A stretch of DNA of 9,554 nucleotides from the IMG/VR virus record IMGVR_UViG_2681813261_000028, one strand, 5' to 3'. The notes beneath the pieces are model-generated. The model saw only the letters and a list, made by a program, of their open reading frames with translations, did no database searches and was not told where the DNA came from. The DNA comes from a virus. Taxonomy: Duplodnaviria > Heunggongvirae > Uroviricota > Caudoviricetes. Both the position numbers and the translations under genes were made by a program. The first letter of the stretch is position 1, and every line of letters starts with the position of its first letter. Of this stretch, positions 1 to 9,554 are shown in pieces.

Positions 1-981
1 TTATAACGTCACTCCGCCTTTTAGTGGATTCAGAGCGACGGCATTTTGCAGATAGTCAGGCGCAAGGTGCGCATAGGCCATCGTCTGCTGAATGCTCGCA
101 TGTCCCAGAATCTGTTGCAGTGCGATTATATTGCCCCCATTCATCATGAAATGGCTTGCGAATGTATGCCGCAGGATGTGGGTTGCCTGATTGGGTGGTA
201 TATCAGGTTTCACTCTGCGTAAAATCCCGCAAAATTTCTCATAATCAACTTTGAATAATTTGGCGCTGGCCTCCTCTTTAACTTTTTTCTCCAGTTCCTC
301 AGAAATCGGCACGGTTCGCTTTTTACCGTTTTTGGTTTTCAGGAAGGTAACCCTGCAATTTGTAATCTGTGCTGGTTTTAGCGTGGCAACTTCCGTCCAT
401 CTTCCTCCAGTGCTCAGACATAAAAGCGCGACAAGTAAGTCATCACCAGCCAAAACATTTAACAGTTTTTCGATTTCTGCTTTTTCCAGGAACGTCATTT
501 CAGGGTTGGCCTCCGCCAGTGGCGGCAGTCCGTGAATTGGGTGTTGCCCGGAAAATTCATCCAATTGAATTAATTTTGTGAACATGCCGGATAATCTGTA
601 CATGTCACGGTTTATCGTTGCGGCACTGATACCATCACGTAGTCGCATGGAACGATAATCCATCAAAGCCCTTTTGCTCATCCTGCTCACTGGTATATCA
701 CCTATGCCGCTGATGGTTTTGAGTAGATGATTAAACTCTTTTGTTCCATGCTCGTGGTTTTGCCCGTGATATTTCCACCAGATGTCCAGCAACTCACTCA
801 AAGTCCGGCGGTCTGCTCGCTGGCCTCCCCATTCTTTCTGACTGGCATTGGCGATTGTGTATCGCTCAAATGCTAGTGCTTCAGCTTTTCTTTCGAATTT
901 CCTGCGGATGCGTTTTCCGTCGCGACCGCGAGGTCTAATGTCCACTTCATAGCGACCATCATCGAGCTTCTTAATTGCCAT
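1..981 (-). CDS. int: Tyrosine-type site-specific integrase (P2 Int-like)
   Basis: Minus-strand open frame ending at stop TAA (complement of 1..3). C-terminal catalytic region typical of tyrosine recombinases is visible (HILRHTFASHFMMNGG, ILGH, TMAYAHL). N-terminus MAIKKLDDGRYEV resembles P2/186-type integrases as recalled. ATG at 979..981 has GGAGGG 7 nt upstream; the ORF-track start at 1009..1011 (336 aa) has no Shine-Dalgarno, so 981 is preferred (326 aa). Confidence 0.9.
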   Translation of the reverse strand: MAIKKLDDGRYEVDIRPRGRDGKRIRRKFERKAEALAFERYTIANASQKEWGGQRADRRTLSELLDIWWKYHGQNHEHGTKEFNHLLKTISGIGDIPVSRMSKRALMDYRSMRLRDGISAATINRDMYRLSGMFTKLIQLDEFSGQHPIHGLPPLAEANPEMTFLEKAEIEKLLNVLAGDDLLVALLCLSTGGRWTEVATLKPAQITNCRVTFLKTKNGKKRTVPISEELEKKVKEEASAKLFKVDYEKFCGILRRVKPDIPPNQATHILRHTFASHFMMNGGNIIALQQILGHASIQQTMAYAHLAPDYLQNAVALNPLKGGVTL

Positions 982-1050
982 AAGAAAGCCCTCCGGCGCT
1001 GTATTCACCATCTTGGTAGCAAATGGTGAAAATGTAATCTTTATATAGAG

Positions 1051-1344
1051 TTAGCCAATCCTTTTCGCGGAGTGGTTGGACTCTGTTGACTCTGGCCCAA
1101 TGTGCGCGAGAGCCGGTGCGATTTGTCCTGCGTCCGGCGCGGTTTTATCTGTCATAAGCCATAGAGCATATTTTTGGAATGTGGGATGCATAGTGATTTT
1201 TAGCAAAGCTGTGCCACCGGGTTCAAAGTTTCCTCCTTCATATTTTTTAAGTGTGCTTAGCGGTAACTCTATGATTTCACAGAATTTTGATTGGCTTAGC
1301 CCTTCAGCCTCACGCAAGGCCTTAATCTTTTCGCTTAATTTCAT
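1051..1344 (-). CDS. C: Immunity repressor, small helix-turn-helix protein (P2 C-like)
   Basis: 97 aa minus-strand ORF, ATG at 1342..1344, stop TAA at 1051..1053. It lies directly upstream of int in the same orientation and divergent from the cox-like gene, as for C in P2. N-terminal HTH-like segment (SEKIKALREAEGLSQSKFCEI) and the segment LWLMTDKTAPDAGQIAPALAH resemble P2-family C repressors as recalled. No search run. Confidence 0.7.
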   Translation of the reverse strand: MKLSEKIKALREAEGLSQSKFCEIIELPLSTLKKYEGGNFEPGGTALLKITMHPTFQKYALWLMTDKTAPDAGQIAPALAHIGPESTESNHSAKRIG

Positions 1345-1465
1345 TTGACATGGTGCCTATATAGGGACTAAATTCCCTCAAAACTGGAACCTATATAGGT
1401 TCCATTGATTTGAGAATAAACCAGCGTCTAAACGGTTTTGAGTGGTTTAGAAAGGGCTGGATCCT
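1345..1465. promoter_or_regulatory. Divergent immunity switch region with palindromic putative operators
   Basis: 121 bp between divergent C and cox-like genes. Consensus -35 TTGACA at 1345..1350 with a weak -10 candidate TAAATT at 1369..1374 (18 bp spacer), oriented rightward. Palindromic 10-mer CCTATATAGG occurs twice (1356..1365 and 1390..1399); the second sits in a perfect 18-bp palindrome GGAACCTATATAGGTTCC (1386..1403). A further dyad AGGGA-CTAAAT-TCCCT lies at 1363..1378. Exact promoter and operator assignment is inference. Confidence 0.5.
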
Positions 1466-1753
1466 ATGAGGGTACCATATATGGACGCTGAAAATTATGT
1501 GATTCAGTATCCGCTTGATGCGGTTCATGTGGATAAATTTGCTGATTTATTAGGGAAGCCAAAGACAGCCGTCAGTGAAATGGTGAAGGCAAATAAATTA
1601 CCAATTATTGAATTGCGTGATCCTTGCAAACCGAAGGCTCGTGCCGGTGAAAAATGGGTTTTCATTCCTGAGTTTAATCGCGCTGTACGTGAGGCGTTTT
1701 ATAACCGACCGGTTGAACAGCGTGATGCATGGCTTTTGTGGATGGGGTTGTGA
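1466..1753 (+). CDS. cox: Cox-like excisionase/transcriptional regulator
   Basis: 95 aa plus-strand ORF, first gene of the rightward operon, divergent from C as in P2. Small size and C-terminal ...WLLWMGL resemble P2 Cox as recalled. Start is ambiguous: ATG 1466 (AAAGGG upstream) or ATG 1481 (GAGGG 8 nt upstream). Stop TGA at 1751..1753. Confidence 0.65.
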   Translation: MRVPYMDAENYVIQYPLDAVHVDKFADLLGKPKTAVSEMVKANKLPIIELRDPCKPKARAGEKWVFIPEFNRAVREAFYNRPVEQRDAWLLWMGL

Positions 1754-1755
1754 TT

Positions 1756-1926
1756 ATGAATGAGCCGCGTTGTATTGCTCAGTTATTGCGTAACGAAAGC
1801 CCTAGGGCGATTGACTTCACCATCACCCACGGGAAGGGTCGCAAGGGAATCATTATCCGCACCAAAAAACAGAGTCCGTTAAAAAAGGCTCTGACCTTTC
1901 TGAAAAGCCGGAGGGTCTGGAAATGA
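1756..1926 (+). CDS. Small basic hypothetical protein (position of P2 orf78)
   Basis: 56 aa from ATG 1756, 2 nt after the cox stop. Its stop TGA (1924..1926) overlaps the ATG of the next gene (ATGA at 1923..1926), suggesting translational coupling. The ORF track offers an alternative start at 1729 (65 aa). No recognisable motif. Confidence 0.4.
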   Translation: MNEPRCIAQLLRNESPRAIDFTITHGKGRKGIIIRTKKQSPLKKALTFLKSRRVWK

Positions 1927-2423
1927 CAGTGATGACGCTCAATCTCGTCGAAAAACAGCCAGCAGCTATGCGCCGGATAATTGGTAAGCATCTTGCCGTC
2001 CCTCGTTGGCAGGATACATGTGATTATTATAATCAGATGATGGAGCGCGAACGGCTAACAGTTTGCTTTCATGCGCAGTTAAAACAACGTCACGCAACGA
2101 TGCGTTTTGAAGAAATGAACGACGTCGAACGTGAACGGCTGGTTTGTGCAATTGATGAATTGCGTGGGGCATTCTCAAAACGCCGTCAGGTTGGCGCAAG
2201 TGAGTATGCATATATTAGTTTTTTAACAGTCAGTCAGCGTCGTACTTTATTTATGCATGCCGGATTGACTGAAAAAGAATTCAATCAGCCATACTGGCGA
2301 ATTAATGAAGAGTCATGTTACTGGCGTGATGCTTTATTCCGTGCATTACGTGAACTATTCAGTCTGTTTGAGTATGCACCGACAATTCTGACGTCGGTAA
2401 AACCAGAGCAATATTTGCATTAA
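1923..2423 (+). CDS. B: Replication protein B-like (P2 gpB family)
   Basis: 166 aa ORF, ATG 1923, stop TAA 2421..2423. Position between cox and A and the length match P2 gene B as recalled. No catalytic motif identifiable by eye; the call rests on synteny and size. Confidence 0.7.
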   Translation: MTVMTLNLVEKQPAAMRRIIGKHLAVPRWQDTCDYYNQMMERERLTVCFHAQLKQRHATMRFEEMNDVERERLVCAIDELRGAFSKRRQVGASEYAYISFLTVSQRRTLFMHAGLTEKEFNQPYWRINEESCYWRDALFRALRELFSLFEYAPTILTSVKPEQYLH

Positions 2424-2486
2424 ATAATTAACCAGAGTTTTTAACGCACTTAATTGTGCGGGGCTTCTTTTTGCCTGGAGAAAGTC

Positions 2487-2711
2487 ATGCATACAGTTTC
2501 TGAAAATCAGTGCGGTAAATACGCATTACTGCTGCAACAGGCCAGAACCGAAGCACAGGCCGACGCTGCGACGCGCTTTTCTTCTCATCTTGACGCCATG
2601 ATTCGCCATATCACAAAGGCGGAGTTATCCCGCGTGGAGATAGTCGAGCTGCTCAGTCAGGAGTCGGAAAAATTTCACAATATCGGATTGTCTCGCGGGG
2701 AGGTGCTTTGA
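2487..2711 (+). CDS. Hypothetical early-operon protein (position of P2 orf80)
   Basis: 74 aa from ATG 2487, with GGAG at 2477..2480 (6 nt spacer). The ORF-track start at 2454 is TTG with no Shine-Dalgarno. Stop TGA at 2709..2711 overlaps the next ATG (TGATG). Confidence 0.5.
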
Positions 2712-3010
2712 TGTCCTGTTCTCATTCAGTTGTATTACTGAATAACGCCTTAAAAATCGCCGTTATGAAAAATGGCGACTTGTCTCTTATTCAACTTTGT
2801 CTTGATAAAGAAAAACGCGACATCACTGAATCTGTTATCGCGATTTATCAGAATGAATTAAACCTCCTGTCTGATGTGGTCAATTTACTTGTTAAACGCG
2901 CTGTATTCCACAAGCAAATTTCCTCAGTGGATGAACTGACAAAATTAACGACAGAACTTGCCAGTTATTGCGCTGATGTATCCAGGAAACTTAACGATAA
3001 AAGGAGCTGA
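2711..3010 (+). CDS. Hypothetical early-operon protein (position of P2 orf81)
   Basis: 99 aa from ATG 2711..2713, overlapping the upstream stop. Stop TGA at 3008..3010. No recognisable domain by eye. Confidence 0.5.
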   Translation: MSCSHSVVLLNNALKIAVMKNGDLSLIQLCLDKEKRDITESVIAIYQNELNLLSDVVNLLVKRAVFHKQISSVDELTKLTTELASYCADVSRKLNDKRS

Positions 3011-3012
3011 TA

Positions 3013-3237
3013 ATGCCGGACAACATAGATTTTATTCAGGAACAACAGGCTGAATTACTGGAGCGCCAGATTAACGCGGCAAGGGTAAAACATTGCGGTG
3101 CTTCTGCGCTGGTTTGCGAAGAGTGTGACGCGCCAATTCCTGCTGCCCGTCGTGCGGCTTATCCGTCAGCCACGCGTTGTGTTTCCTGTCAGTCAGTCTT
3201 TGAAGCAAAAAACAAACATTACCGGAGAACGGCATGA
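3013..3237 (+). CDS. TraR/DksA-family C4 zinc-finger protein
   Basis: 74 aa. AAGGAG at 3001..3006, 6 nt before ATG 3013. Four cysteines in CxxC-(17)-CxxC arrangement (CEECDAPIPAARRAAYPSATRCVSC), typical of the DksA/TraR zinc finger. Its stop overlaps the next start (ATGA at 3234..3237). Confidence 0.75.
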   Translation: MPDNIDFIQEQQAELLERQINAARVKHCGASALVCEECDAPIPAARRAAYPSATRCVSCQSVFEAKNKHYRRTA

Positions 3238-3509
3238 GTATTCGTATTGAAATTGGCGAACGTTATGTCGTTACCAGTGACAGCTTCCAGTTTATTCTCC
3301 ACGAGAAAAAGAGAGCGGAAAGCGGTAAAAACGCCGGTCAGGAATGGCTGGCGGTGGTTGGTTATTACCCGAAATTAAGCCAGCTCGTTTCCGGCCTGAT
3401 GCATCACGATATTCTGACCGGAAGCGCAAAGTCTTTTGCTGATTTAAACGCGCAGGTTGAGCAACTCAGCAAGCGTTGTTCAGAGGCTTTTGGCTCATAT
3501 GGCCGTTAA
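3234..3509 (+). CDS. Hypothetical early-operon protein (position of P2 orf83)
   Basis: 91 aa, ATG 3234 with GGAG at 3224..3227. Stop TAA at 3507..3509, overlapping the start of gene A by 11 nt. Confidence 0.5.
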   Translation: MSIRIEIGERYVVTSDSFQFILHEKKRAESGKNAGQEWLAVVGYYPKLSQLVSGLMHHDILTGSAKSFADLNAQVEQLSKRCSEAFGSYGR

Positions 3510-5796
3510 AGCCTCCGGGCGTTTTGTCCCTCCGTCAGCATTTGCTGCAGGCACCGGTAAGGCGTTTACCGGTGCTTATGCATGGAACGCGCCACGCGAG
3601 GCTGTCGGGCGCGAAAGACCCCTTACACGTGACGAGATGCGTCAGGTGCAAGGTGTTTTATCCACGATTAACCGCCTGCCTTACTTTTTGCGCTCGCTGT
3701 TTACGTCACGCTATGACTACATCCGGCGCAATAAAAGCCCGGTGCACGGGTTTTATTTCCTCACATCCACTTTTCAGCGTCGTTTATGGCCGCGCATTGA
3801 GCGTGTGAATCAGCGCCATGAAATGAACACCGACGCGTCGATGCTGTTTCTGGCTGAGCGTGACCACTATGCGCGCCTGCCGGGAATGAATGACAAGGAG
3901 CTGAAAAAGTTTGCCGCCCGTATCTCATCGCAGCTTTTCATGATGTATGAGGAACTCAGCGATGCCTGGGTGGATGCGCATGGCGAAAAAGAATCGCTGT
4001 TTACGGATGAGGCGCAGGCTCACCTCTATGGTCATGTTGCTGGCGCTGCACGTGCTTTCAATATTTCCCCTCTCTACTGGAAAAAATACCGTAAAGGACA
4101 GATGACCACGAGGCAGGCATATTCTGCCATTGCCCGTCTGTTTAACGATGAGTGGTGGATTAGTCAGCTTAAAGGCCAGCGTATGCGCTGGCATGAGGCG
4201 TTACTGATTGCTGTCGGGGAGGTCAATAAAGACCGTTCTCCTTATGCCAGTAAACATGCCATTCGTGATGTGCGTGCACGCCGCCAGGCAAATCTGGAAT
4301 TTCTTAAATCGTGTGATCTCGAAAACAGGGAAACAGGCGAGCGCATCGACCTTATCAGTAAGGTGATGGGCAGTATTTCTAATCCTGAAATTCGCCGGAT
4401 GGAGCTGATGAACACCATTGCCGGTATTGAGCGTTACGCCGCCGCAGAAGGTGATGTGGGGATGTTTATCACGCTGACCGCGCCGTCAAAGTATCACCCG
4501 ACACGTCAGGTTGGAAAAGGCGAAAGTAAAACCGTCCAGCTAAATCACGGCTGGAACGATGAGGCATTTAATCCAAAGGATGCGCAGCGTTATCTCTGCC
4601 GTATCTGGAGCCTGATGCGCACGGCATTCAAGGATAATGATTTACAGGTCTACGGTTTGCGAGTCGTCGAGCCACACCACGACGGAACGCCGCACTGGCA
4701 TATGATGCTTTTTTGTAATCCACGCCAGCGTAACCAGATTATCGAAATCATGCGTCGCTACGCGCTCAAAGAGGATGGCGACGAAAGAGGAGCTGCGCGA
4801 AACCGTTTTCAGGCAAAACATCTTAATCGGGGCGGTGCTGCGGGGTATATCGCGAAATACATCTCAAAAAATATCGACGGCTATGCACTGGATGGGCAGC
4901 TCGATAACGATAGCGGCAGACCGCTGAAAGATACTGCCGCGGCTGTTACCGCATGGGCGTCAACGTGGCGCATTCCGCAATTTAAAACGGTTGGCCTGCC
5001 GACAATGGGGGCTTACCGTGAACTACGCAAATTGCCTCGCGGCGTCAGCATTGCTGATGAGTTTGACGAGCGCGTCGAGGCTGCACGCGCCGCCGCAGAC
5101 AGTGGTGATTTTGCGCTGTATATCAGCGCGCAGGGTGGGGCAAATGTCCCGCGCGATTGTCAGACTGTCAGGGTCGCCCGTAGTCCGTCGGATGAAGTTA
5201 ACGAGTACGAGGAAGAAGTCGAGAGAGTGGTCGGCATTTACGCGCCGCATCTCGGCGCGCGTCATATTCATATCACCAGAACGACGGACTGGCGCATTGT
5301 TCCGAAAGTGCCGGTCGTTGAGCCTTTGACTTTAAAAAGCGGCATCGCCGCGCCTCGGAGTCCTGTCAATAACTGTGGAAAGCTCACTGGTGGTGATACT
5401 TCGTTACCGGCTCCCACACCTTCTGAGCACGCCGCAGCAGTGCTTAATCTGGTAGATGACGGTGTTATCGAATGGAATGACCCGGAGGTTGTGAGGGCGC
5501 TCAGAGGTGCATTAAAACACGGACTGAGAAGACCAAACCGTCAGCAAAGAAACGGAAGCCCGTTAAAACCGCATGAAATAGCGCCATCGGCCAGACTGAC
5601 CCGGTCGGAACGAATGCAAATTACCCGTATCCGCGTTGACCTTGCTCAGAACGGTATCAGGCCGCAGCGATGGGAGCTTGAGGTGCTGGCGCGTGGGGCA
5701 ACCGTAAATTATGACGGGAAAAAATTCACTTACCCGCTCGCTGATGAGTGGTCGGGATTCTCAACAGTATTAGAGTCAAACTCAGTGAAGCGTTAA
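3499..5796 (+). CDS. A: Rolling-circle replication initiator / replication endonuclease (P2 gpA family, HUH superfamily)
   Basis: Long ORF, stop TAA 5794..5796. HUH metal-binding motif HWHMML at 4693..4710 and tandem-tyrosine motif YIAKY at 4846..4860, the two signatures of phiX174/P2-type initiators. ATG 3499 is preferred (765 aa) over the ORF-track TTG at 3457 (779 aa); the N-terminus then reads MAVKASGRFVPP. Confidence 0.9.
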   Translation: MAVKASGRFVPPSAFAAGTGKAFTGAYAWNAPREAVGRERPLTRDEMRQVQGVLSTINRLPYFLRSLFTSRYDYIRRNKSPVHGFYFLTSTFQRRLWPRIERVNQRHEMNTDASMLFLAERDHYARLPGMNDKELKKFAARISSQLFMMYEELSDAWVDAHGEKESLFTDEAQAHLYGHVAGAARAFNISPLYWKKYRKGQMTTRQAYSAIARLFNDEWWISQLKGQRMRWHEALLIAVGEVNKDRSPYASKHAIRDVRARRQANLEFLKSCDLENRETGERIDLISKVMGSISNPEIRRMELMNTIAGIERYAAAEGDVGMFITLTAPSKYHPTRQVGKGESKTVQLNHGWNDEAFNPKDAQRYLCRIWSLMRTAFKDNDLQVYGLRVVEPHHDGTPHWHMMLFCNPRQRNQIIEIMRRYALKEDGDERGAARNRFQAKHLNRGGAAGYIAKYISKNIDGYALDGQLDNDSGRPLKDTAAAVTAWASTWRIPQFKTVGLPTMGAYRELRKLPRGVSIADEFDERVEAARAAADSGDFALYISAQGGANVPRDCQTVRVARSPSDEVNEYEEEVERVVGIYAPHLGARHIHITRTTDWRIVPKVPVVEPLTLKSGIAAPRSPVNNCGKLTGGDTSLPAPTPSEHAAAVLNLVDDGVIEWNDPEVVRALRGALKHGLRRPNRQQRNGSPLKPHEIAPSARLTRSERMQITRIRVDLAQNGIRPQRWELEVLARGATVNYDGKKFTYPLADEWSGFSTVLESNSVKR

Positions 5797-5882
5797 CTCA
5801 ATAAATATGAGTTTATAAGTTAGGCCTCGAGATTTTGTAGAAAGGGATGTATACTGAGTATCGTATAGATTTGGAGTGAGTG

Positions 5883-6905
5883 ATGACTGTAAAGGTGATA
5901 GACCTTTTTTGTGGTGCTGGCGGATTAACTCATGGTTTGCAGCTTGCGGGGCTTGATGTCGTTGCAGGCATTGACCTTGAGGGGGAATGTAGGTTTCCCT
6001 ATGAAAGAAACAATAAATCTAAGTTTATTGAGCAAGATATCGCTAAAGTAACAAAAGAGGAACTGCTGAGGCTTTATGGTGATGCGTCTGTAAAAGTATT
6101 GGCAGGATGCGCACCTTGCCAACCTTTTTCAAAATATACTCAAGGAAAAGATAAGGCTGATGATAAAAAATGGCCTCTTCTTTATGAGTTCGAACGTTTA
6201 ATTCGCGAAGTATCTCCAGAAATCGTAACAATGGAGAACGTTCCTGATGTAACTAAACATAAAGTTTATAATGATTTTTATAATTCATTGTTAAAGTTGG
6301 GCTATTATGTTTGGGCGTCTAAGATTGATTGTGTCGAATATGGAATCCCACAAAACCGTTCCCGTCATGTATTGTTGGCCTCAAAATTGGGGGCGATTGA
6401 GTTAGTAAAACGTGACGATGTTATTTTGAAAACAGTTAGAGATGCAATAGGAAATCTTCCTCCATTAGAAGATGGCCAAACAGATCCAAATGATATATTA
6501 CATAGAGCCAGTAAATTAAATCCGATTAATAAAAAAAGAATTATACACTCTGTTCCTGGTGGTACATGGAAGGACTGGCCGAAAGAGTTGGTTGCCGCTT
6601 GTCATATGAAATCCAGCGGTAAAGGGTATGCTAGTGTATATGGGCGCATGTCTTGGGATAAGCCAAGTCCAACAATTACAACTCTTTGTTATGGTTTCGG
6701 GAATGGGCGTTTTGGACATCCAGAACAGCATAGAGCGATTTCTCTTAGAGAGGCTGCTTTATTGCAAACTTTCCCGATGGATTATATTTTTGTAGAAGAC
6801 AAAAACAAGTTTGTTATAAGAAGTATTGGGAAAATGATAGGTAATGCTGTTCCTGTGGAACTAGGAAAAGCAATTGGGCAATCAATCAAGAACCATTTAG
6901 AATGA
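5883..6905 (+). CDS. DNA (cytosine-5)-methyltransferase
   Basis: 340 aa from ATG 5883 (GGAG at 5873..5876); the ORF-track start 5880 is GTG. Canonical C5-MTase motifs are in order: motif I DLFCGAGG, motif IV catalytic GCAPCQPFS, motif VI TMENVPDV, motif VIII QNRSRHVLLA, motif X GNAVPVELG. The variable region between VIII and X is short, suggesting a short recognition site. Stop TGA at 6903..6905. Confidence 0.9.
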   Translation: MTVKVIDLFCGAGGLTHGLQLAGLDVVAGIDLEGECRFPYERNNKSKFIEQDIAKVTKEELLRLYGDASVKVLAGCAPCQPFSKYTQGKDKADDKKWPLLYEFERLIREVSPEIVTMENVPDVTKHKVYNDFYNSLLKLGYYVWASKIDCVEYGIPQNRSRHVLLASKLGAIELVKRDDVILKTVRDAIGNLPPLEDGQTDPNDILHRASKLNPINKKRIIHSVPGGTWKDWPKELVAACHMKSSGKGYASVYGRMSWDKPSPTITTLCYGFGNGRFGHPEQHRAISLREAALLQTFPMDYIFVEDKNKFVIRSIGKMIGNAVPVELGKAIGQSIKNHLE

Positions 6906-6909
6906 TAAA

Positions 6910-6930
6910 ATGGCCTGCTTTACAGGCCTT
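6910..6930. terminator. Putative bidirectional intrinsic terminator between convergent genes
   Basis: Perfect 6-bp stem GGCCTG (6912..6917) / CAGGCC (6923..6928) with 5-nt loop CTTTA. It sits in the 29-bp gap between the MTase stop (6905) and the minus-strand gene stop (6935), with A/T-rich flanks on both sides. The stem is short, so strength is uncertain. Confidence 0.45.
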
Positions 6931-6934
6931 ATAA

Positions 6935-7181
6935 CTATTGTTCTAAATATTCATTATTATTTATATAGTGCTCTATATTATTCACGATAGCATCAAGATA
7001 GGCGATTACTTCTAATGAAATATTCTCTAAGTCCTGATATGAAACATTTTTTCCAATCTCAGCAAATGATACATTGCCATGAGATAAATCATTACGATGT
7101 TGTTTAACAGTGGCTAATTTTTCACCATGTTTAGTGTGAGTGTAATCGGAATGTGTAGAAAAACCATATATTTTCGATTTT
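6935..7181 (-). CDS. C-terminal segment of a HEPN-like protein (Rx4H motif); start lost in N-run
   Basis: Minus-strand frame open from the N-run (7182) to stop TAG (complement of 6935..6937), 82 codons. Contains ...VKQHRNDLSHGNVSF... with R at 7094..7096 and H at 7079..7081, matching the HEPN RNase motif R-x4-H. This frame differs from the upstream segment 7215..7652, so both are probably one gene whose frame is hidden by the gap. Confidence 0.5.
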
Positions 7182-7652
7182 NNNNNNNNNNNNNNNNNNN
7201 NNNNNNNNNNNNNNTTTTTCTTTGATTTCCTCTCTATCAATATTTCCTGAGAATATTTTCTTTTTGTTGAACGTGCCATAAGATATACCGCAAGATATAC
7301 CTTTGGTAAGGTGATTAACTAAACTTTCAACATTTACAGATTCATTTTTTAATCTTTTTAATATTTCTGACCTGAGATTTTTCCTGAGTTTGTCAAATTC
7401 TACGTTTCTATCATAAATAGTCTCATGAATAAGGCAGATAGCTTCTCTCATTGTTGATTCAATGAGGTTATATAACAGTATATATACTGCTCCCTTTAGA
7501 GTTTTTCGTGATTGAGCAGTAATGGAGAACTTATGTTCTTTATCATCAGCTGATATCAGTTCTGCACCGGCATACTCAATAAATTTCAAAAGATCCAAAT
7601 AGGCCAAGATCTCTCCTGACCTTTCGTCAAAATCCTCACGAAAACGATCCAT
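7131..7652 (-). CDS. N-terminal segment of the DUF262-partner protein (same gene as 6935..7181 if the gap hides a frame change)
   Basis: ATG at 7650..7652 (complement) lies 1 nt after the DUF262 stop (TAAcATG), indicating an operon. Read literally through the 33 N it runs to a stop at 7131 (173 aa); only 7215..7652 is real sequence. The protein looks helical and charged, with no catalytic motif upstream of the gap. Confidence 0.6.
   Translation of the reverse strand: MDRFREDFDERSGEILAYLDLLKFIEYAGAELISADDKEHKFSITAQSRKTLKGAVYILLYNLIESTMREAICLIHETIYDRNVEFDKLRKNLRSEILKRLKNESVNVESLVNHLTKGISCGISYGTFNKKKIFSGNIDREEIKEKXXXXXXXXXXXKIENIWFFYTFRLHSH
7182..7214. other. Run of 33 N (assembly gap or masked bases)
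   Basis: 33 consecutive n characters seen directly in the sequence, inside the small minus-strand gene. Confidence 0.97.
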
Positions 7653-7653
7653 G

Positions 7654-8796
7654 TTAATCCTCTAATAATTTATCCCGAACATATTCAATTCGTTCAATTA
7701 CCTTCACGCGACTATTAGCTCCGTCGGAAGTGGTCAATCGTTTGAATTCTTCTGAGCTTAGCCAATCTAAGTTCTTGGGAACAAGGTCAGGGACTTCACG
7801 TAATGCAAGTGCTGCGCCAACAGCGAGAGATTCGAATCTAACTCGAGGTGTAGATTTTGCAGTAATAGTTTTCTTGAATCCTGCTGGGAAATAGTTTTCA
7901 ACAAAAGATAGAACATTAGCAAACTCTTGTTTCATTGAGTTTTGTTTAGTTTCGTCTATATCTCGATTTTCTGACATATAGTCATTTAGAAAATCCCGTA
8001 CGGAATGATCAAAGTTCTTGTACTTATCTACGTAGGCAAAGAATCTTAATGTAAATTCTAACCGTTCATCTCGTTTTTCTTTAGTCTGAGATAAAGGTGC
8101 TAATTCTTTAAATTTAGGTATTGTTGAGCATGGCTTAATAACCTGTGTATATAAATTTGTTGAACCAAGTTCTGATCCTTTACGGACTTCCATATCTTTC
8201 AATATATCGCTGCCAGAGTTAATACGCTCAAAAAGATCTCTACGGGTTTCTTCATTGCATTTAGAACTCAATTCTATAACGCGGACAGGAATTCTCATGA
8301 AACGACGTTGACGTGATAATGGTAAATCTTGGAATTTGAAACCATTAAGGACGTCTAAAGATTTCAGGTCTTGTAAAACTAATTCATTTTGGATAAAAGC
8401 GTGTATAGTCCTAACTCGTTGTGAGCCATCAACAATCTCAATTCGCCCATCTAAATCGGGATCTTCGGAGAGAACATCTGCTATAAATATATATGGTATA
8501 GGAAAACCCAAAATCAAAGACTCTATCAATTTTGATTGTCTTTTTTCACTCCAAACAAAATCCCTTTGATAATCAGGAACAAAGAGTTCGTTAGTATCAT
8601 CCTCTAATCCGTTATGATACTTATTAACTAATAACTCAACGGTAAATTCTTTGGTCTCAAAATCCACATCCTTTTGCTCAGCACGAATTTGCTCTTCAGC
8701 GTTTTGCTTTATCACCTCTAGCTGAGCAAGCAACTCTGCTCTTTTCTTGGCATTATCTTCATTTTCTAGTTGAGATTTTAAATCAATAATGTCCAT
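7654..8796 (-). CDS. DUF262-domain protein (ParB/Srx-like NTPase fold, GmrSD N-terminal-domain family) without a nuclease domain
   Basis: 380 aa from ATG 8794..8796 (AAGGGA 8 nt upstream on the minus strand); the ORF-track start 8814 is TTG. DUF262 signature motifs are present: VPDYQRDFVW and IVDGSQRVRTI (the DGQQR box). No HNH/DUF1524-type His-rich motif in the C-terminal third. Stop TAA at 7654..7656. Confidence 0.85.
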   Translation of the reverse strand: MDIIDLKSQLENEDNAKKRAELLAQLEVIKQNAEEQIRAEQKDVDFETKEFTVELLVNKYHNGLEDDTNELFVPDYQRDFVWSEKRQSKLIESLILGFPIPYIFIADVLSEDPDLDGRIEIVDGSQRVRTIHAFIQNELVLQDLKSLDVLNGFKFQDLPLSRQRRFMRIPVRVIELSSKCNEETRRDLFERINSGSDILKDMEVRKGSELGSTNLYTQVIKPCSTIPKFKELAPLSQTKEKRDERLEFTLRFFAYVDKYKNFDHSVRDFLNDYMSENRDIDETKQNSMKQEFANVLSFVENYFPAGFKKTITAKSTPRVRFESLAVGAALALREVPDLVPKNLDWLSSEEFKRLTTSDGANSRVKVIERIEYVRDKLLED

Positions 8797-8981
8797 GTCT
8801 AGTTCCCTTAACAAGTGTTAAAAATTGAAGCGGATAGCATACCGCATAGATCATGAAAAATGCCATCATGTGCATGGATTTGCATGCGTCAGAAGTCGCT
8901 TTTATTGTTAGTTATCACTAGCGCTGGCGTGCTCTTGGAGTGTTCATGCAACTGCATTAAAACCGCCCCATGAAGCGGGCG

Positions 8982-9000
8982 GGCGAGGCGGGGAAAGCAC
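8982..9000. other. Phage cohesive-end (cos) site, P2-type 19-mer
   Basis: GGCGAGGCGGGGAAAGCAC at 8982..9000 matches the 19-nt cohesive end of P2 as I recall it (from memory, not searched). It lies in a GC-rich non-coding stretch between the cargo island and the 3' end of the portal-like gene, where cos sits in a P2 prophage. Confidence 0.6.
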
Positions 9001-9140
9001 TGCGCGCTGGCGGTGGTGCTGATTTTATTTTCCAGCGTCTCAGCGCGTCGTGACGGCGCTTAGTCTGCCCGTTGGGCGTTGGTGTGTCTGCGGGATTTTT
9101 TGTGCGGTGATGAGCGTGTGAGGGCGTGATGGCGGGGTGT

Positions 9141-9162
9141 AAAAAAGCCGCCCGCAGGCGGC
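9141..9162 (-). terminator. Intrinsic terminator downstream of the portal-like gene
   Basis: On the minus strand, 5 nt after the stop at 9168..9170: stem GCCGCC/GGCGGC (9147..9152 and 9157..9162) with 4-nt loop, followed by a T6 tract (A6 on the plus strand at 9141..9146). Confidence 0.65.
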
Positions 9163-9167
9163 GATGT

Positions 9168-9554
9168 TCAGCCGTTGTCAGTGTCCAGTGAGTAGTTTTT
9201 AAAGCGGATGACCTCCTGACCGAGCCAGCCGTTTATCTCGCGGATCCTGTCCTGTAACGGGATAAGCTCATTGCGGACAAAGACCTTTGCCACTTTCTCA
9301 ATATCACCCAGCGACCCGACGTTCTCCGGCTTGCCCCCCATCAACTGAAAGGGGATGCGGTGCGCGTCCAGCAGGTCAGCGGCGCTGGCTTTTTTGATAT
9401 TAAAAAAATCGTCCTTCGTTGCCACTTCACTGAGCGGGATAATTTTAATGCCGTCGGCTTTCCCCTGTGGGGCATAGAGAAACAGATTTTTAAAGTTATT
9501 GCGGCCTTTGCAAAATGGCATCTGAATCGATCGCAGTTTGGCATTCGAATCGAT
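9168..9554 (-). CDS. Q: Portal-like capsid protein, C-terminal part (5' end outside the window)
   Basis: Minus-strand frame is open from the window edge (9554) to stop TGA (complement of 9168..9170); no stop between 9522 and 9554, so the ORF-track Met at 9521 is internal. Assignment to P2 gpQ rests on position (leftward gene with its 3' end next to cos) and is unverified. Confidence 0.55.
   Translation of the reverse strand: MDSNAKLRSIQMPFCKGRNNFKNLFLYAPQGKADGIKIIPLSEVATKDDFFNIKKASAADLLDAHRIPFQLMGGKPENVGSLGDIEKVAKVFVRNELIPLQDRIREINGWLGQEVIRFKNYSLDTDNG

Follow-up and report, generated by a model that had tools for sequence, protein, structure and literature searches.

P2-like phages carry a locus between their replication gene A and their portal gene Q that has been described as an anti-phage hotspot, in which 1,650 arrangements of genes are known from 18,150 occurrences (Rousset et al., 2022; PMC9122126), and to which four new systems from a functional screen map (Vassallo et al., 2022; PMC9519451). 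Here, we describe the content of this locus in the IMG/VR virus record IMGVR_UViG_2681813261_000028, a stretch of 9,554 bases (the window) that comprises the early half of a prophage of the P2-like (Peduovirus) type. Between A and the cohesive-end site cos, it contains an island of low G+C content (GC) with three genes, which code for a C5 DNA cytosine methyltransferase (MTase), a HEPN protein and a DUF262 protein. A reading of the sequence without database searches (the sequence-only reading) had taken this stretch for horizontally acquired cargo in a variable slot of the phage. Its composition, a break in the alignment to P2 and the differing cargo of related phages support this view, and we regard the stretch as nearly certain to be such hotspot cargo. 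It is a self-contained, mobile three-gene cassette in a hypervariable A-cos slot. As a finding on genome organization, this is already known: the slot is a textbook defense hotspot, and the trio is listed for it in Table S5A of the published catalogue (PMC9122126) with the MTase WP_001697730, an accession that is absent from the table of tested systems in the same study. The same accession is annotated in L001, a prophage adjoining cpxP in E. coli JNE120442, with which positions 1-9509 of the window align at 97.3%.

In its setting, the island resembles the gpA-gpQ hotspot of P2 itself, which carries old and tin (Odegrip, 2006; PMC9122126; PMC9519451). In both, A lies to the left and cos and Q to the right, the cargo falls into a size class of 1-5 kilobases (kb), the leftward genes begin close to cos, like the old-tin mRNA of P2, and the content varies among close relatives. 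The cassette, however, has no sequence similarity to tin and old and adds a rightward methylase gene, and its junction eliminates orf91 and changes the final codons of A.

In its gene content, the cassette resembles several described systems. An operon of MAE_28990-type HEPN, ParB and DNA methylase genes was predicted earlier in a one-line comparative-genomics entry, and HEPN ribonucleases (RNases) linked to restriction-modification (R-M) systems were proposed to form a further line of defense (Anantharaman et al., 2013; PMC3710099). The cassette has exactly the same three components and a conserved Rx4-6H motif, but whereas the operon was described without phage context or experiment, we find it as the cargo of several temperate phage families. 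The PD-T4-2 system of E. coli ECOR65 consists of a DUF262 and a HEPN protein without a methylase and protects against T4, both cloned and in the native strain (PMC9519451). In both systems, a small HEPN protein comes after the DUF262 protein. The A component of PD-T4-2 is matched by the cassette's DUF262 protein, but the B component is not matched by its HEPN protein, and only the Pfam family PF18735 links the HEPN proteins. Moreover, PD-T4-2 has just two genes in ~1.54 kb, whereas the cassette includes a methylase, and its HEPN protein of 226 amino acids (aa) fits PF18737 better. The Menshen system NsnABC (Millman, 2022; PMC12065111) has, in NsnA, a ParB-DUF262 domain and a helical C-terminal half without a nuclease domain, as seen here. 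Yet the cassette lacks the ABC ATPase NsnB and the effector NsnC: the only gene downstream of its DUF262 gene is that of the HEPN protein, and no ATPase is encoded in the island. GmrSD, BrxU and SspE feature an N-terminal DUF262 domain with QR, DG(Q/S)QR and FxxxN motifs, which are also present in the cassette protein, and in SspE this domain reads a modification that is written by partner genes. By contrast, the cassette protein does not possess their C-terminal DUF1524 His-Me (HNH) nuclease, and the effector is a separate HEPN protein. Membership in Menshen, in the GmrSD type or in PD-T4-2 was rejected, as one defining feature of each is missing. Lastly, PrrC-EcoprrI, a HEPN anticodon nuclease in an R-M system, resembles the cassette in the genetic linkage of a HEPN RNase to a DNA-modification system, but it shows no sequence relationship to the cassette proteins and has different partners.

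The window runs from int (1-1011, minus strand) through the repressor gene C, cox, B and small open reading frames (ORFs) to A, the island, cos and the 3' end of Q (Table 1). Many Peduovirus genomes align to it at 96-98%, save across one internal gap. As the sequence-only reading had anticipated, the alignment to the P2 reference (NC_001895) runs through A, breaks, and resumes at cos: positions 1755-5776 are 96.6% identical to P2, and position 8982 aligns to P2 base 1 (cosL). The orf91, tin and old genes of P2 have no counterpart in the window and are replaced by the three cargo genes. The island hence has the position and size of hotspot cargo, lying between the end of A (5796) and cos or Q, with flanks that are 96-97% identical to P2 and a length of ~3.1 kb.

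The same flanks enclose at least six different cargoes in related phages: orf91-tin-old in P2, cdtABC in phage T22, a DUF4209 protein in 569R9, Dcm and ParaMORC3 in PhiR44_1, an MTase and two unrelated genes in 12474III, and the Fic-type VbhT in STYP1. No phage record of the collection carries the island at near identity. A P2-type A gene is present in 1,684 of 5,426 complete E. coli genomes, and only nine of these also contain the island (eight at 98% identity and one at 89%), so that the three genes are clearly not a fixed property of P2 relatives. In the same slot, phage P24B2 has a much more diverged form of the trio (DUF262, 45% aa identity; HEPN, 30% aa identity; MTase, ~70% nucleotide identity), which belongs to the same Pfam families and therefore indicates that this type of system entered the slot more than once. 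The cargoes of PhiR44_1 (L004, 6021-9069) and 12474III (L005, 7237-10273) have the same layout as the island, with a rightward MTase followed by leftward effector genes, which hints that MTase-linked systems repeatedly take this form in the P2 slot; Dcm and ParaMORC3 of the former, and the MTase, hypothetical protein and ParB-N protein of the latter, are without sequence similarity to the cassette. The 12474III cargo was considered as a diverged copy and ruled out, given the lack of sequence similarity and of any Pfam match; the likeness is one of layout only.

The limits of the cassette were set by homology. On the left, the similarity to P2 stops 20 nucleotides (nt) short of the A stop codon, and the homology of P2, T22, 569R9, PhiR44 and 12474III to this flank ends at 5751-5776. 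The last ~20 nt of A (5777-5796) are not P2-like, and the C-terminal codons differ from those of P2 in the alignment. In E. coli GN04592 (L002), another copy of the island, which is 88% identical, does not follow A directly, but comes after orf91-like and hypothetical genes, and its match to the window begins at 5784. Because these two independent comparisons, the end of the P2-type homology and the start of the L002 match, converge, we locate the left junction at 5777-5784, which places it within A, 13-20 nt from the 3' end. On the right, the edge is gradual: similarity returns at 8872 in T22 (the cdt-carrying phage), at 8941-8947 in three other phages and at ~8953 in P2. The conserved right flank begins at ~8870, and the strict cargo therefore spans ~5777-8870 (3.1 kb). 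The sequence-only reading had let the cargo begin right behind the A stop and end at 8981. It rightly placed it between A and cos, but the junction lies just inside A, and although 8981 is the last base before cosL, the final ~110 nt are part of the conserved cos-side region and not of the cargo.

This conserved flank starts with a TGCAT-N5-TGCAT element, which occurs once in each of eight P2-type loci compared (8/8) and in none of 17 other loci, always 111-112 nt to the left of the cos cleavage site (L001 10038, L003 8465, L004 9202, L005 10350, L007 8271, L008 8680 and L021 6432). It could be a terminase site, a host-factor site or part of a leftward cargo promoter region. The ~70 nt between the element and the cos-proximal block are not conserved, and the cos sequence GGCGAGGCGGGGAAAGCAC is essentially invariant in all relatives, with a single-base deletion in one of them.

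The cassette is also found outside P2-like phages. Its core (5820-8796) is shared, at 76% nucleotide identity, with lambdoid prophages of Klebsiella pneumoniae, in which the copies are flanked by the replication genes on one side and by the ninG/rusA/antiterminator region on the other (487 blocks in the contig collection); it appears to be much commoner there than in E. coli. In four of these prophages, the cassette (L022-L025, 6001-8886) lies in a nin-like region, and the replication module varies by strain (DnaC-like or lambda O/P). The trio further occurs in Salmonella P2-like prophages, in Moraxella catarrhalis phages (Mcat24) and in Vibrio jasicida, where it lies beside a resolvase. In the cyanobacterium Brasilonema bromeliae (L016, 3910-8362), it neighbors a gene for an XisA-type recombinase and lies between two fragments of nitrogenase-family (Oxidored_nitro) genes, which suggests that this copy rides on a heterocyst-type excision element. 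On a metagenome contig, all three genes are co-directional. Overall, adjacency of the trio was seen in five other lineages, and the three-gene linkage described here draws on about ten loci. Across the same taxa, the DUF262 protein is consistently better conserved than the HEPN protein (for example, 83% versus 70% in Morganella and 78% versus 68% in Gibbsiella). This wider occurrence was found via protein-cluster look-ups; a contig scan with a single HEPN protein yielded 105 pattern matches, none of which was confirmed by tblastn.

The base composition sets the same stretch apart. GC is 0.36 for 5797-8866, compared with 0.49 on its left and 0.54 on its right side; by segment, it amounts to 0.532 in A, 0.364 in 5797-8981, 0.359 in 5797-8866 and 0.575 in 8867-9167. 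In sliding windows, it ranges from 0.50 to 0.59 in A, from 0.27 to 0.43 between ~5850 and 8850, and from 0.55 to 0.57 past 8850. The GC of third codon positions (GC3) also falls sharply, to 0.289 in the MTase gene, 0.207 and 0.283 in the two fragments of the HEPN gene, and 0.274 in the DUF262 gene, versus 0.541 in A and 0.653 in Q; values as low as those of the island genes are reached nowhere outside the island. Windows of 100 nt inside and outside the island differ (Mann-Whitney, p = 1.2e-10), and a model with two breakpoints, which fall at 5985 and 8920, outperforms a uniform one by 81 log-likelihood units. The GC drop between A and cos that had been noticed at first sight is thus real. The hand counts behind it captured the contrast but erred slightly in the absolute values, which are 53% instead of 48% for A, 36% for the DUF262 gene and 39% for the MTase gene. 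Outside the island, the lowest value is a dip to 0.377 at 2701-3000, over an ORF at 2708-3010 (DUF5405/orf81-like).

The cassette was richer in AT than its flanks in all six of the other contexts measured (cassette GC 0.29-0.41), so low GC belongs to the cassette itself and is not the fingerprint of one donor. Since it stands out from its surroundings in every host examined, the compositional contrast reflects the make-up of the cassette and its horizontal movement. That it might instead have arisen in the phage backbone itself, through local mutation or selection, is hardly credible. The early region is indeed uneven (GC 0.447 for 1012-3456, with one ORF at 0.376), but the stretch is missing from nearly all relatives, which have unrelated genes in its place, and the same DNA recurs at 76% identity in Klebsiella lambdoid prophages; these comparative data already refute this explanation.

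All three proteins have recognizable domains. The MTase matches Pfam PF00145 over its full length (3.4e-58) as well as TIGR00675 (dcm; 1.5e-37), and its translation contains the motifs FCGAGG, PCQPFS with the catalytic PCQ, ENV, QNRSR (QxRxR) and GNAVP. It therefore looks like an active DNA methyltransferase, as is expected of a Type II R-M system, and its 340-aa form corresponds to the RefSeq entry annotated in L001. Among solved structures, it has only remote matches (M.HaeIII at 8e-22 over the catalytic half, DNMT1 and M.HhaI), from which no target specificity can be assigned.

The DUF262 protein matches PF03235 (DUF262/GmrSD_N; 8.2e-26), and its QR, DG(S)QR and FxxxN motifs are invariant across 45 homologs. 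In PADLOC, the NsnA model of Menshen matches at full length (residues 17-380; 1.7e-54) and scores higher than PD-T4-2_A (PDLC04027; 2.5e-35), which aligns residues 79-378 with profile positions 55-356 of 363. Neither the Pfam search (for DUF1524 or HNH) nor the structure search (for a nuclease fold) revealed a nuclease domain. The latter was done with a model built from the 45-sequence alignment, the single-sequence AlphaFold model being unusable (predicted local distance difference test 39.7). For this predicted model, the fold search returned ParB/Srx-type and helical matches only, with BrxU and SspE as the best structural matches.

The HEPN gene is split into two frames, and both fragments match PF18737 (1.6e-12 for profile positions 6-134, 1.1e-12 for 138-211), with 3.2e-29 for an intact homolog. 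PF18735 is also matched above its cut-off (8.4e-09), and the RNDLSH (Rx4H) motif is present and conserved.

Given the hotspot location, the domain content and the validated relative PD-T4-2, our analysis suggests that the cassette probably has an anti-phage defense function. How its parts would cooperate can be stated only tentatively. In the scheme that we favor, the cassette would be an anti-phage (exclusion) system that is linked to DNA modification and expressed in the lysogen. The MTase, transcribed rightward from downstream of A, would write a 5-methylcytosine mark on the resident DNA. The DUF262 protein, a putative ParB/Srx-type nucleoside triphosphatase (NTPase) that has a helical DNA-binding half, would sense how DNA is modified, like its GmrSD/BrxU, SspE and NsnA relatives; the targets in question are glucosyl-hydroxymethylcytosine (glucosyl-hmC) for GmrSD, several cytosine modifications for BrxU, and phosphorothioate written by partner genes for SspE. 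The HEPN protein, with its intact Rx4H motif, is the only evident effector and would most likely act as an RNase, either halting the growth of the phage or killing the cell that it infects; RNase activity is typical of HEPN domains (PMC3710099). A more specific version, possible but doubtful, is an R-M-like system with an arm that is not a deoxyribonuclease (DNase): the methylase would supply a self mark, DUF262 would be its reader on incoming or replicating DNA, and the HEPN RNase would be switched on when the mark is missing. If true, this would amount to methylation-gated abortive infection in a 3-kb module that moves among P2-like, lambdoid and Moraxella phages and non-phage mobile elements of several phyla.

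A number of observations weigh against this scheme. Searches of the accessible literature for an experimental study of the three-gene cassette found none. PD-T4-2 works without a methylase, and L018, a distant cyanobacterial-type contig, has DUF262 and HEPN genes without an adjacent methylase gene, so the MTase may not be mechanistically required. Characterized DUF262 enzymes such as GmrSD and BrxU attack modified DNA, which does not fit easily with a cytosine methylase encoded in the same cassette. For the HEPN protein, PADLOC has no matching model up to E = 10, PD-T4-2_B included, so that this protein is not demonstrably a PD-T4-2 B protein. A promoter scan gave eight matches versus 12.2 in shuffled sequence, which is no better than chance, and we rely on no promoter call. 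Finally, the HEPN frame is broken by 37 extra positions in the window, which, if real, would render this copy inactive.

Some of these points would be accommodated if the cassette combined two independent functions, an explanation that we consider rather unlikely. DUF262 and HEPN would then form a PD-T4-2-like, type IV-like sensor of foreign hypermodified cytosines, while an orphan methylase would shield the (pro)phage DNA from host restriction or modulate expression. This would agree with the missing methylase in L018 and with the activity of the two-gene PD-T4-2 system against T4, whose DNA carries glucosyl-hmC; likewise, DUF262 senses modified bases in GmrSD, BrxU and GrwAB. In the window, the methylase gene lies on the strand opposite to DUF262-HEPN and is co-directional with the early operon, and the slot cargoes of PhiR44_1 and 12474III also open with a rightward MTase. 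Against such independence, the methylase stays beside DUF262 and HEPN in Enterobacterales, Moraxella, Vibrio, the cyanobacterium and the metagenome contig, in both gene orders and in one case with all genes co-directional. This linkage, which was noted independently in 2013 (PMC3710099), persists where only protein similarity remains and is hard to explain without functional coupling.

Coupling of another kind is invoked by a classical R-M system with a backup, in which DUF262 would be a DNase that cuts unmethylated DNA and the HEPN RNase a second line for cases in which restriction fails, as in PrrC/EcoprrI. The corresponding neighbor has been called a 'ParB nuclease', and a multi-pronged logic has been proposed for HEPN genes in R-M operons (PMC3710099); there is also a weak PADLOC match of the DUF262 protein to REase_II ('Type II restriction enzyme'; 9.4e-06). 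The absence of DUF1524 or HNH matches, and a fold search that recovers only ParB/Srx-type and helical structures, make this unlikely, as do the characterized relatives, in which DUF262 is an NTPase sensor and DNA is cut by a separate domain. In addition, K-12 tolerates PD-T4-2 although no cognate methylase is present.

A different question is whether the copy in the window is a decaying remnant, inactivated by a real 37-nt insertion and frameshift in the HEPN gene. Compared with intact copies, codons 145 and 146 of the gene are set apart by 37 extra positions (TTTT plus 33 N), which put its halves into different frames. The halves are otherwise intact, however. They are 98% identical to the 226-aa protein of L001, whose gene is uninterrupted over 681 base pairs, and they abut exactly in it (...REEIKE|KSKIYGF...), with no residue lost. 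Moreover, the sequences flanking the N run overlap by TTTT, as expected of two contig ends joined by a scaffolder, and in several independent assemblies contigs end inside the HEPN gene (29-33% GC). Because of this overlap and these breaks in the same AT-rich gene, a scaffolding gap is the likeliest explanation for the N run, and decay is quite improbable. A 144-aa 'partial' HEPN protein from Salmonella (P0035) was considered as a match to the break at the N run and rejected, since it is a C-terminal fragment from a contig end elsewhere.

Type II R-M systems are known to act as addiction modules, and the cassette could likewise be a selfish element, in which loss of the methylase unleashes a DUF262-HEPN toxin and thereby stabilizes the carrier, with anti-phage effects being secondary. 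Its presence on many unrelated elements (P2-like, lambdoid and Moraxella phages, a resolvase-linked and an XisA-type recombinase locus) would suit this idea, which is nonetheless very improbable for a cassette that sits in a slot dominated by validated anti-phage systems and whose relative PD-T4-2 guards its native strain against T4.

Beyond the known genome organization, the residual value of this finding lies in pointing to a system that is common in Enterobacterales prophages, with hundreds of Klebsiella and Salmonella contigs, and recurs in distant phyla. Once clarified, the role of its methylase would show how DUF262 'reader' domains link the modification of DNA to effectors other than DNases.

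Table 1. Coordinates of the cassette, its flanks and candidate sites in the window.
Feature	Positions	Strand	Basis
Gene A, replication endonuclease, left flank	3457-5796	+	L001 annotation (replication endonuclease), P2 annotation (A)
Left cassette junction	5777-5784		End of P2-type homology versus start of L002 match
Promoter-like site upstream of MTase (weak)	5827-5855	+	TCGAGA-17-TATACT, consensus scan; inside the core shared with the Klebsiella lambdoid copy
C5 DNA cytosine methyltransferase, 340 aa from ATG 5883 (start in ORF list: GTG 5880)	5883-6905	+	PF00145, TIGR00675
GC-rich hairpin between convergent units	6912-6928		GGCCTGTAAAGCAGGCC followed by a T-run
MAE_28990-type HEPN gene, two frames	6935-7652	-	PF18737 in both fragments
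Run of 33 N	7183-7215		Alignment with intact copies
DUF262 / ParB-Srx-type NTPase, NsnA-like, 380 aa from ATG 8796	7654-8796	-	PF03235
Upstream region of DUF262-HEPN operon	8797-8870	-	Common only to P2-context cassette copies
TGCAT-N5-TGCAT element, start of conserved cos-side flank	8871-8885	+	Found in P2-type loci at a fixed distance from cos
Conserved cos-proximal block and 19-nt cohesive end GGCGAGGCGGGGAAAGCAC (8982-9000)	8954-9000	+	Invariant alignment columns
Portal gene Q, 3' part, right flank	9168-9509	-	96.4% identical to P2 1-528; portal protein annotation in relatives

Among the non-coding sites, the GC-rich hairpin is probably a terminator between the convergent transcription units; terminator-like sites number seven, versus 2.1 expected. 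In the upstream region of the DUF262-HEPN operon, the Klebsiella lambdoid similarity stops at 8796, L001 and L002 continue through, and T22 resumes at 8872. The position of this region is analogous to the start region of the old-tin mRNA in P2, and the consensus scan found no convincing promoter in it. An Rfam scan of the whole window found nothing.

Three observations concern other parts of the prophage. The int-C-cox region (1-1754) is not P2-like: only 857-995 matches P2 (80%), and the region matches prophages beside cpxP. It is a second mosaic segment, with different immunity and integration specificity. At the other end of the window, the last 45 bases (9510-9554), which read GCAAAATGGCATCTGAATCGATCGCAGTTTGGCATTCGAATCGAT with two copies of GAATCGAT, match neither the Q gene of L001 nor that of P2, both of which continue in frame; they may be spurious sequence at the contig end, a chimeric join or the trace of a rearrangement by which Q is truncated. 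Lastly, some relatives have a PAPS-reductase-family gene just upstream of A (L002, 2950-3957; phage P37), which marks another variable insertion point in the early operon.

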